Positions 3,001 through 5,331 of a stretch of 20,069 bases of DNA are shown here, one piece after another. Position numbers: made by a program. The first letter of the stretch is position 1; every line of letters starts with the position of its first letter. The stretch spans positions 1 to 20,069 of the IMG/VR virus record IMGVR_UViG_2778261642_000012; one strand, given 5' to 3'. This stretch comes from a virus (lineage: Duplodnaviria > Heunggongvirae > Uroviricota > Caudoviricetes).

Positions 3001-5331
3001 ATGATTCCGTCCCGGATACCGAGAACGTTTCGTCCAGCAACTGGAGAGAGTTCGACGGTGGCATCATTGCCCATGCCGGAGGCGCTGGAGGTTTCGGCTG
3101 AGGATGGCACAGAGCATTTTCCTTTGACGAGCACCCGACCACCATTATCAAGCTTGCGCCGAAGAGCATCATTTTCAGCTTTCGCATCAGCTAACTCCTT
3201 CGTGTATTTAGCATCGAGTGCATCAGCAGCACGCTGGCGCTGCTGCATGTCAGTAATGGTGGCGGTCGCCTGCTTCAGCTCACTGACTTTTTTATCACGC
3301 TGTTCTTTATAGGCGATGGCGTTATCACGGTAATGATTGACCGCCCACGACAGGCAGACGATGATGCAGATAACCAGAGCATAAATAATCGCGGCGACTC
3401 TGCTCACTGATCTATCCCCCAACAGGCTAATGCACTTTCCTGGTCACGACGAATAACCTGTCCATAGCAGTTATTTGAACGTATGCGGCAATCGCGCCCA
3501 CCATCTTTTATCCACCAGCGAATCGCCTCGCATGCACCCTTACGATCACCAGCATTCAGTCGCTTATAAAACGTCGACGGGAAACACTTACCAGGGCCAA
3601 TGTTATAGGGACAAAATGACGCTATACCCGCTTTCTGTGGCTCGGTCAGTGGTACTTTAATATTACGTTCCACCCATGCCAGCGCCTTATCACGTTCAAT
3701 AGCGTTAACCTGGTCGCACTTTTCCTTCGACAGCTTCATTCCCGGTATGACGGGCTTACCATCCACCATTGTGGCACCGCGGCAGATGGTCCATATACCG
3801 GAACCATCACGGTATGCCGTTGTGTGATTACCCTCTTTTTCGTTCAGAAACTGGTCAAGAATGTCAGGCGCAGGCGCACCTGCGGCAATCAGCGCCAGAA
3901 CGACAGCCGACAGACCGTATTTGATTTTTGCGCTCATGGATATGGATGGATATTTATCAGGATTTATCGGTTCCAAATCCCTGGATATGTTTAGTACTCA
4001 GCCCGGCAGGTAGTTCCTCGCAGGGGTAATACTGACAATGTGAAGATCACAGAACAAACAGTAAGGACAACATATGAGCGATACTTATTTATCTAAAAAA
4101 GCTTTTGCTGATATTCTGGCCATCAGACAGGTTGTCATACTCCTGGTTAACGATTTACCAGATGAGAAAAAAGCAATTATTAAAGATTTGCTTACTAAAT
4201 CAGCTGACACTTTTTCATCAAAAAAATTACCCGAATCCCTGGAAACCCCGCAGGAAGTTTTAGACGAAATGAACAAATTGATTGCCGAATCATGCGCTAC
4301 TCTTGCTGAGACAATTTTAATTCCTGAAGAAACTTCATCGTCATACCATCAATAGTTTGCTGAACAGCTTTAGCAACAAACGCCACCCCATTTTCGTGGT
4401 GGCGTTGTCGCTCATTTACGGCTCGCATCGCGGCAACTATCGCACGACTTATGTCATCCCCGGCGTTTTTTTCCTGCCCTGCGCGCCTGGTGCTGGCTTT
4501 AACTGCACTATCAAAACCCGCAAGATGAGGACGATCGTGTTTATTGGCAGAATTTTCAATCTTAATGGAGTACTGATGCTGCAGATAAGACTCAACTTTT
4601 TCTGACAATTTTTCTGCCACTCCCAGGAAGACCTGCCTGACGCTCATTCTGGCTGCTGCCTCATAAAACTCCAGCGCGGCACCTTCAACACGGTCCAGCG
4701 AGATGTCCAGGTCAAAAATTTCACCGTCAAAGCGTTTTTTGTCCCGTAACGCTAAAGTTACCGTAACTTTATCCTCAAAATTGCGGATCCCTTTCACAAT
4801 CAGTTCATAGTTTTGAGTCATTGAATTACTCTCCCCGTGCAGCCTTACGCTTGTCTTCTCTGATTTTGAAGTACAGATTTGTCAGATAAGTCAGGAAGCC
4901 AAGAACCAGACTCCCCAGTACACCAATCGCAGCCCACTGTGAAGGACTGACCTGATCAAGCCACTGTAAAAACCAGTAGCCAGCACTGCCTGCGGAGGTG
5001 CCGTAGGCAATGCCCGTTGAAATTTTGTCCATGGATTTCATAGCCTCACCTCCGCAAATAACGGATGGCGTAGTTTTACACTGAGAAATGAAAGGGATTT
5101 GAAAAGAAAAACCCGCAAAAGCGGACGAAACGATATATACAGTAAGGAAAGCACTCTATCCAACAAACCACCCACAGTTAATCGGAATAAAAGCAGAGTG
5201 CTTATGAATGATCGCCTGCCCGAAGGTTAGTATTTCTGCACAGCAATTTTGCAAAAAAGCGATCATTCATAACTTAAACGTCTTTCAGCCACTCCGGGAT
5301 TTCCCATCATCGCAGACTGAAAGACTCTAAC

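Follow-up and report, generated by a model that had tools for sequence, protein, structure and literature searches.

A conserved structured RNA attached to a tRNA operon in lambdoid prophages of Escherichia coli

What is encoded in the 290 nt between the last transfer RNA (tRNA) gene and the holin gene of an Escherichia coli lambdoid prophage? The DNA analysed here is IMG/VR record IMGVR_UViG_2778261642_000012, positions 1 to 20,069 (hereafter the window, meaning this whole stretch of 20,069 nt). The window covers the regulatory and late region of the prophage, and the late genes are all read on the minus strand. An identical stretch is present in E. coli AR_0089, for which RefSeq leaves the 290 nt from tRNA-Gly to the holin gene unannotated. 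An earlier reading of the window made without database searches (the sequence-only reading) had described this interval as a dyad-rich untranslated region that could be a Q-dependent terminator, a processing site or a regulator of the holin dual start. We showed that the dyads are three adjacent helices (P1, P2, and P3) of a conserved noncoding RNA on the minus strand. Rather than switching the holin, this element, an undescribed structured RNA encoded by a prophage moron and attached to its tRNA operon, probably serves as a small regulatory RNA. Positions refer to the window and are collected in Table 1; minus-strand features are given in their 5′ to 3′ direction.

Three conserved helices on the minus strand

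Both inverted repeats of the sequence-only reading were recovered: the 9-bp repeat AAGCACTCT/AGAGTGCTT at 5149-5157 and 5195-5203, with 37 nt between the arms, and the perfect 14-bp pair TTATGAATGATCGC/GCGATCATTCATAA at 5202-5215 and 5259-5272, with 43 nt between the arms. The small hairpin with a U-run was also present on the minus strand (GTCCGCTTTTGCGGGT at 5126..5111, then TTTTTCTTTT at 5110..5101), 60 nt before the holin start at 5041, and the tRNA array and the holin gene that flank the dyads were both confirmed. A third dyad, GTCTTTCAG/CTGAAAGAC (5280-5288 and 5317-5325), which was absent from that reading, was found directly 3′ of tRNA-Gly. In 200 dinucleotide shuffles of the whole window, no perfect inverted repeat of 14 nt whose loop was 60 nt or shorter ever arose. 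Folding of the minus strand from 5331 to 5042 gave −91.7 kcal/mol (z = −3.6) and a structure of three consecutive helices followed by a terminator hairpin, and the plus strand was shown to fold less well (−65 kcal/mol, z = −2.4).

A multiple alignment of 36 distinct sequences of P2 and P3 gave an RNAalifold consensus of 40 pairs. Standard pairs were found in 99.0% of the 1,437 pair cells, compared to 35–50% when the 3′ partners were slid by 1–3 columns, and compensatory changes affected both sides of seven pairs, of which four belong to the outer P3 helix. The alignment consists of three or four clades only, a relatedness that inflates the shuffle control; the slid-partner control does not have this weakness. 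The pairs included 193 G-U cells, and the opposite strand would be only 85.7% paired in the same structure. Since the G-U pairs and the positions of the terminators described below fit the minus strand only, the transcribed strand is the minus (late-sense) strand. A palindrome or binding site acting at the DNA level was rejected on the same strand specificity (99.0% versus 85.7% paired).

The three helices differed in how widely they were kept. P2 was the only helix present in every homologue, including loci without P3 (L118, L028, L008, and L009; related loci are designated by L numbers). Its helix 1 was paired in 99.6% of cells with two pairs changed on both sides, and hairpin P2a was paired in 99.0%. 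The outer helix of P3 was paired in 100% of cells, and four of its eight pairs were changed on both sides (variants CACUCU/AGAGUG, CACUCC/GGAGUG, CAUCUC/GAGGUG, and CAUCUC/GAGAUG). P1, which contains an inner hairpin UGGG-AAAU-CCCG and the conserved sequence CUGCGAUGAUGGG in its loop, was paired in 96.7% of cells across 18 distinct sequences, compared to 39–48% with slid partners, and three of its pairs were changed on both sides. P1 was missing in part of the loci, where P2 directly follows tRNA-Gly, and a few loci retained P1 and P2 with P3 replaced.

Two segments were fixed beyond what pairing demands. The G/U-rich segment GGGUGGUUUGUUGG at 5173..5160 in P3 was invariant in all 36 sequences, although the 5′ strand that pairs with it varies, and the loop of P2a (AAAUUGCUG) was near-invariant. 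The conserved core comprises P2 and P3, about 125 nt, with flanks that were unalignable between clades. Among these flanks, the A/U-rich spacer between P3 and the terminator differed between clades in both sequence and length and was unpaired in the minimum free energy (MFE) structure of each of the 12 variants folded.

Short open reading frames (ORFs) are present on both strands of the region, and one phage record annotates one of them. These ORFs were shown to be broken by 1–3 nt indels among close relatives, in agreement with the untranslated status proposed earlier. Protein coding was rejected, as the length of the poly-T tract differs by 1–3 nt, one- and two-base indels separate close relatives and substitutions follow the base pairing. 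"Hypothetical protein" calls across the element, such as URC08906.1, are corrected by the RNA reading.

Linkage to tRNA arrays and terminators, and distribution

A phage tRNA array on the same strand was found directly 5′ of the element in most loci, usually ending in tRNA-Gly(UCC) and once in tRNA-Glu. In some loci P2 starts 1–2 nt past the CCA end of tRNA-Gly, and tRNA-Gly fragments are frequent in loci where the tRNAs are not intact. The junction at the tRNA 3′ end is A/U-rich (CCA/GUUAG in the window and CCAG/UUUUU in L036, with the slash at the junction).

The array is preceded by a predicted sigma-70-type promoter, with a GC-rich discriminator TCTGCGCGC from the −10 hexamer to the first tRNA at 5641. 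This arrangement (TTGCAx-17-TATyAT and a GC-rich discriminator about 10 nt before the first tRNA) was kept in 13 of 15 loci, with unrelated sequence farther upstream. The promoter spacer has diverged in the window and in L075, with the hexamers and their spacing retained, and the equivalent site of L079 was flagged by a promoter scan. The promoter of the window was nearly identical to the site 5′ of ileZ in a Shiga toxin (Stx) 2a phage, and differential RNA sequencing (dRNA-seq) of an Stx2 lysogen has mapped a primary transcription start site, which drives the tRNAs, at a promoter of that type (PMC7547250). By orthology with the Stx2 phage site, we infer that the tRNA-operon promoter is active in this prophage. 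In the Stx2 operon ileZ-argN-argO, the promoter TTGCAG-17-TATTAT and the first tRNA are orthologous (about 80% identity) to those of the window and lie at the same place after tR′. The Stx arrays, however, end in tRNA-Arg followed by the stx genes and lack the P1-P2-P3 trailer, which shows that the element is an optional module.

The second tRNA gene of the array (5488-5564, minus strand) was variable in a particular way. Its acceptor, D and T arms were nearly identical across loci, whereas the anticodon loop was hypervariable and of 5, 6 or 7 nt (CCUUUAA, CAUAGU, UAAAU, CCAGGU, UGAAU, UUAAU, and CUUGGU). ARAGORN called the gene Lys, Phe(AAA), Phe(GAA), Leu(UAA) or "???". Homologues are located at L036 3571-3644, L012 5537-5609, L079 1571-1644, L053 162-234, L209 1868-1940, L176 2189-2261, L040 923-996, L074 3069-3142, and L118 453-526. 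Judged from these sequences, the gene resembles a tRNA-like scaffold whose anticodon loop is diversifying or truncated, and the loop variability is possibly related to evasion of anticodon nucleases.

A second promoter-like site within the array (TCGGCA-16/17-TATAAT, 10 of 12 positions matching; 5418-5391, minus strand) covers both the 3′ end of tRNA-Thr and the tRNA-Gly D arm. The match was found in all three loci scanned (also L079 1714-1741 and L012 5467-5439) and probably arises from the tRNA sequences themselves. Were the site active, transcription would begin within tRNA-Gly and continue into the element.

At the other end of the element, the hairpin at 5126..5101 has the features of an intrinsic terminator, with six pairs, four of them G-C, a 4-nt loop and the U-run. 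Intrinsic terminators were found 13–45 nt past P3 in 20 of the 26 distinct variants, with at least five unrelated sequences and in some cases two in tandem, and all terminators found were on the minus strand. The counterpart that follows the element in phage HK639 is an annotated terminator. Similarity to relatives with another downstream region ended at the U-run (query position 229, corresponding to window position ~5103), and the predicted terminator marks the 3′ boundary of a mobile module. This module is clearly bounded and consists of promoter, tRNAs, structured RNA, and terminator. As the predicted terminator lies in the path of late transcription, Q-modified RNA polymerase must read through it, and late transcription in this prophage must cross at least three predicted terminators before the holin gene.

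The element was shown to travel with the tRNA array and not with the holin gene, independently of holin type and Q type. The holins 3′ of the element belonged to at least three Pfam families, Phage_holin_2_1 (P21 S), Phage_holin_3_1 (lambda S), and Phage_holin_8, and were 100–720 nt away, often with other small RNA (sRNA) genes and terminators in between. The Q proteins 5′ of the element were of three different kinds, and in one locus the genes next to the element were not lysis genes.

The interval between Q/pR′ and the lysis cassette is a documented niche of prophage sRNAs (PMC4104026; bioRxiv 10.64898/2026.05.13.724894), and the region from pR′ to the lysis genes tolerates insertions and is a hot-spot of Hfq-bound sRNA genes (Tree et al., PMC4104026). 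The element shares this niche with STnc100 (RF02076)/PasD, AgvB, AsxR, PasA/C, IsrI, and IsrJ. STnc100 and PasD resemble the element in their late orientation, their terminator with its U-tail and their length of 170–200 nt, whereas AgvB and AsxR are 51–60 nt long and convergent to late transcription. The linkage to a tRNA array distinguishes the element from the Pas, AgvB, AsxR, STnc100, and Isr sRNAs.

In relatives, STnc100 (one or two copies), isrI, and isrJ adjoin the element in the same orientation, each with its own terminator. These adjoining sRNA genes are located at L001 3254-3459, L079 2063-2268, L005 6596-6800, L097 412-618, L112 2489-2686, L176 830-1035 and 1202-1298, L119 6582-7118, and L258 5638-5712. 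With sRNA genes that have their own terminators flanking the element, the interval from Q to the lysis genes amounts to a row of small RNA genes, and new sRNA candidates are common in this region.

The 290-nt stretch was found in 540 of 5,426 complete E. coli genomes, in every case on the chromosome, at 1–5 places per genome and never annotated. Among 50,697 phage records the element matched six, including HK639 (76% identity); none of the six was an Stx phage and none was HK022. Pattern-based scanning of IMG/VR and of a set with one genome per species yielded many more prophage copies, as well as copies in Enterobacter hormaechei, Citrobacter sedlakii, Yokenella regensburgei, Phytobacter ursingii, and Shigella flexneri. 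The element is thus present in about 1 in 10 complete E. coli genomes, including extraintestinal pathogenic (ExPEC), avian pathogenic (APEC) and sequence type 131 (ST131) strains, and also in prophages of other enterobacterial genera.

Possible functions of the element

Comparison with known RNAs gave no relative of the element. With Rfam 15, scans of the window and of the element alone detected no family in 5101-5331 at the gathering score or at E-values up to 10, save for noise hits of at most 15 bits. At the gathering score, 14 related loci likewise gave no family that covers the element; the families considered included STnc100, AgvB, AsxR, IsrI/J/K, tRNA, T-box, and YrlA. A BLAST comparison with PasA, B, C, D1, and D2, whose sequences were rebuilt from published E2348/69 coordinates, showed no similarity. 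No description of the element was found in annotation, Rfam or the literature, and it was described nowhere in the full texts searched for the invariant sequences, HK639 and sRNAs in prophage tRNA spacers.

Several candidate identities were rejected. For a tRNA or tRNA-like cloverleaf there was no ARAGORN or Rfam call in 5101-5331, and P2 consists only of a closing stem of 13–14 bp and two inner hairpins. A YrlA or retron RNA matched no model, and no reverse-transcriptase or rsr gene is located nearby. An antisense, AgvB-like C/A-rich sRNA on the plus strand, for which CCAACAAACCACCC resembles GcvB target sites, was dismissed on the ground that the structure and all terminators fit the minus strand only. 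Finally, the candidate E2348C_ncR36.E2348C_2757.IGR, obtained by RIL-seq (ligating and then sequencing interacting RNAs) in prophage PP10 of enteropathogenic E. coli (EPEC), has an analogous layout and is not homologous to the element. This candidate (L268 3558-3670 and 3769-3865; E2348/69 NC_011601.1 2837057-2837365) is located about 100 nt 3′ of a pseudo-tRNA-Gly and ends in a terminator, and it represents a second, unrelated tRNA-linked small RNA in a prophage.

The reading that we favour, and to which we give about an even chance, is that the element, as the structured trailer at the 3′ end of a tRNA moron operon, is set free in the form of a stable small RNA that would act in trans. A self-contained phage tRNA operon (the moron) would have been inserted between Q/pR′/tR′ and the lysis genes, in the order sigma-70 promoter and discriminator (5679..5642), four tRNAs, P1-P2-P3, A/U-rich spacer, and terminator (5126..5101). 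In the lysogen, transcription would most likely proceed from the tRNA promoter of the operon itself and stop at this terminator. Once RNase E and 3′ trimming had excised tRNA-Gly, a stable structured RNA of about 170–230 nt would remain, comprising P1-P2-P3, the spacer and the terminator hairpin. The invariant loop AAAUUGCUG and the G/U-rich strand GGGUGGUUUGUUGG may contact a partner in trans, which could be a C/A-rich site on an RNA or a protein that binds RNA, Hfq or ProQ for example. Upon induction, Q-modified polymerase from pR′ would cross tR′, the second copy of tR′ and the terminator of the operon, and reach the holin gene. For a discrete transcript of this kind, the terminator provides the 3′ feature, and the tRNA junction and the conserved upstream promoter suggest where the 5′ end would lie. 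The processing site proposed by the sequence-only reading is plausible in this general sense, as the dyads start a few nucleotides from the 3′ end of the last tRNA.

The closest analogues by function and layout, which are not homologues, are 3′ETS-leuZ and two RNAs of phage T4. The element lies between the last tRNA and the operon terminator on the same strand, which is the arrangement expected for an RNA of the 3′ external transcribed spacer (3′ETS) type. 3′ETS-leuZ is reportedly an sRNA sponge cut from the 3′ETS of the E. coli glyW-cysT-leuZ tRNA operon. Like the element, it is noncoding and located between the last tRNA of a polycistronic operon and an intrinsic terminator, and release by tRNA processing, not transcription from a promoter of its own, is what we propose for the element as well. 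In contrast to 3′ETS-leuZ, with which it shows no sequence similarity, the element is about three times longer, is phage-borne, forms three helices and a three-way junction, and has no known partner sRNA. The distal end of the phage T4 tRNA cluster encodes the stable "species 1 and 2" RNAs (rnaC and rnaD), which are described as having tRNA-like ends processed by RNase P. These small structured RNAs, which have no assigned function, are transcribed together with a phage tRNA cluster at its promoter-distal end, as is predicted for the element. They belong to a different phage group, and tRNA-like ends of that type are not evident for the element. Expression from the tRNA promoter in lysogens, if it occurs, would add the element to the prophage products able to alter host physiology. 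It would also make it the first phage structured tRNA-trailer RNA since these unexplained stable RNAs of the T4 tRNA cluster.

Several observations weigh against release as a stable, trans-acting RNA. In the consensus, most of the proposed contact segment GGGUGGUUUGUUGG is base-paired, an unusual state for a seed, and no site complementary to the GGGUGGUUUGUUGG or AAAUUGCUG segments with at most three mismatches was found within the window. The terminator hairpin is weak (a 6-bp stem with two G-U pairs, ~7 kcal/mol), and in some loci a small ORF or an STnc100 gene precedes the element in place of a tRNA. The compensatory changes, drawn from three or four clades, reflect few independent events. 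Besides, the helices are separable, with P1 missing in some loci and P3 replaced in the four loci named above (L118, L028, L008, and L009), which also fits independent structural hairpins.

The main rival, which we regard as a realistic if minority possibility, is a structure acting in cis on stability or processing. It could be a 5′-terminal stem-loop that shields the lysis mRNA from 5′-end-dependent RNase E once the tRNAs have been excised from the Q-antiterminated late transcript, or a 3′ structure that guides or protects the maturation of the last tRNA. The first helix indeed starts 1–6 nt from the tRNA 3′ end, the element is always 5′ of the lysis cassette in the late orientation, and the loss of P1 or P3 in some loci is as would be expected of generic protective hairpins. 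Generic hairpins, however, need no invariant sequences, and AAAUUGCUG and GGGUGGUUUGUUGG are fixed across clades whose flanks are unalignable. Between the element and the holin gene, many loci also contain a terminator followed by one or two sRNA genes, complete and with terminators of their own, so that in those loci the element would not be the 5′ end of the lysis mRNA. Some loci lack an upstream tRNA, and the homologous arrays of Stx phages do without the element: a query of array plus promoter matched many Stx phages and the element matched none.

An extension of the trans-acting reading, which we consider improbable, is that P2-P3 is a dedicated phage effector RNA co-expressed with the tRNAs and represents a new class of noncoding RNA that is linked to tRNA operons and acts on the host. 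Such an effector could be a G/U-rich, GcvB-like regulator of C/A-rich translation enhancers, or a decoy or partner in a contest between phage tRNAs and host defences that target tRNA. The hypervariable anticodon loop of the neighbouring tRNA-like gene gives a hint that the cassette is under defence-type selection.

That the hairpins are decayed remnants of duplicated tRNA genes, forming a structured spacer without function, seems very unlikely to us. The P1 loop (CUGCGAUGAUGGG...CCCGG) does resemble part of the variable loop and T-arm of tRNA-Gly (GCUGAUGAUGCGGGUUCGAUUCCCGC), with which MAFFT aligns it, obvious tRNA-Gly fragments lie just upstream in HK639, L119, and L009, and P2, with 71 nt and paired ends, is of tRNA size. 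Against such an origin, neither ARAGORN nor the Rfam tRNA model found anything in 5101-5331, even at E-values up to 10, and the element persists where tRNAs are lost. The pairing of 99%, maintained by compensatory changes, and the invariant loops across clades would be unexpected of relics.

A regulated attenuator with control over read-through from the terminator into the lysis genes is highly improbable in our view, whether as a riboswitch that senses a ligand or a tRNA or as an antiterminator RNA of the put type. Riboswitches do share this layout, in which an intrinsic terminator and then genes follow a conserved RNA of several helices with invariant unpaired bases, and the element contains GGGUGGU, which matches the core of the T-box motif. 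In addition, two abutting stem-loops before terminators recall the put sites of HK022, and HK639 contains the element. P2-P3 and the terminator were nevertheless shown to fold independently in all 12 variants; blocking the terminator yielded no antiterminator pairing and left the freed strand unpaired. The terminators that follow the element vary in sequence and distance, no T-box or riboswitch family of Rfam matched even at E-values up to 10, and HK022 was not among the six phage records with the element. Constitutive read-through from an active tRNA promoter into the holin gene would moreover kill the lysogen.

The two remaining proposals of the sequence-only reading, namely that the dyads themselves are Q-dependent terminators or regulate translation from the holin dual start, can be given very little credence: the region is located between pR′ and the holin gene and is thus crossed by late transcription, the holin does carry the dual start MKSM and a terminator-like hairpin with a U-run does exist at 5126..5101, but no U-run follows P1, P2 or P3, the dyads are located 108–284 nt 5′ of the holin start codon, the same element precedes at least three unrelated holin families at 100–720 nt, and no alternative pairing of the dyads with the terminator or the ribosome-binding site was found. 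What stands of the Q-dependent terminator is therefore the small hairpin, a plausible intrinsic terminator on the late path, and not the two large dyads, which lack a following U-run. A structure over the holin Shine-Dalgarno sequence or starts, as in the lambda sdi type, is not formed by the P1-P3 dyads, which end at least 108 nt 5′ of the start codon. The Shine-Dalgarno sequence is instead covered by a different dyad, the perfect 10-bp inverted repeat TGCGGAGGTG/CACCTCCGCA (5047-5056 and 4991-5000). On the minus strand, this dyad (5056-5047 / 5000-4991) can pair the Shine-Dalgarno sequence with holin codons ~14–17 and enclose both starts of MKSM. From its position it would be better placed than the P1-P3 dyads for an effect on holin translation.

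Feature positions and other features of the late region

The features of the element and of the late region around it are listed in Table 1.

Table 1. Positions of the structured element, the tRNA operon and the flanking late-region features in the window, in order of late transcription.
Feature	Position	Strand	Description or evidence
Q antiterminator	7320..6568	-	Pfam Antiterm
pR′-like promoter	6536..6508	-	TTGCAT-17-TAAGAT
tR′-like terminator	~6460..6437	-	
Lipoprotein-like ORF	6287..5862	-	No Pfam match
Near copy of tR′-like terminator	5784..5765	-	
tRNA-operon promoter, sigma-70 type (predicted)	5679..5651	-	−35 TTGCAG 5679..5674; 17-nt spacer; −10 TATTAT 5656..5651
Four tRNA genes	5641..5332	-	Followed by the dyad region and then the holin gene
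tRNA, CAT anticodon (Ile2/Met)	5641..5566	-	ARAGORN, Rfam tRNA model, RefSeq of identical locus
tRNA, Lys(UUU)-like	5564..5488	-	ARAGORN, Rfam tRNA model, RefSeq of identical locus
tRNA, Thr(UGU)	5485..5410	-	ARAGORN, Rfam tRNA model, RefSeq of identical locus
tRNA, Gly(UCC)	5406..5332	-	ARAGORN, Rfam tRNA model, RefSeq of identical locus
Helix P1	5325..5280	-	Outer stem 5325..5312 with 5292..5280; inverted repeat and MFE fold
Helix P2	5272..5202	-	Outer stem 5272..5259 with 5215..5202; 14 bp here, 13 in the consensus; closes three-way junction
Hairpin P2a	5257..5250 with 5240..5233	-	9-nt loop AAAUUGCUG at 5249..5241
Hairpin P2b (short)	around UUCG 5224..5221	-	
Helix P3	5203..5149	-	Outer stem 5201..5194 with 5158..5151, and two A-U pairs shared with P2
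P3 inner helix	5186..5176 with 5169..5159	-	
Unpaired A/U-rich spacer	5148..5127	-	UUCCUUACUGUAUAUAUCGUUUC; between P3 and terminator
Intrinsic terminator (predicted)	5126..5101	-	Stem GUCCGC/GCGGGU, loop UUUU, then UUUUUCUUUU
Holin Shine-Dalgarno sequence	5053..5047	-	GGAGGUG
P21-type class II holin	5041..4826	-	Dual start MKSM; Phage_holin_2_1, E = 1.4e-35

The tR′-like terminator AACCCGCCGCTGAGCGGGTTTTTTTG (~6460-6437) is repeated almost exactly as AACCCGCCACTGAGCGGGTTTTTTG (5784-5765) on the minus strand. The lipoprotein-like ORF is thus located between two copies of one terminator, as the insertion of a moron would give.

The holin gene is followed by a DUF1327 gene, the lysozyme gene and Rz, in this order. 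The DUF1327 gene (4297-4821, minus strand) is an ORF of 174 aa in the window and a truncated pseudogene in RefSeq for the identical locus. Its end is overlapped on the opposite strand by an ORF of 93 aa (4074-4355, plus strand), which is annotated as a hypothetical protein in RefSeq. The longest other inverted repeat of the window was found at 15512-15536 and 15576-15600, with arms of 25 nt that are 84% complementary and 39 nt between them.

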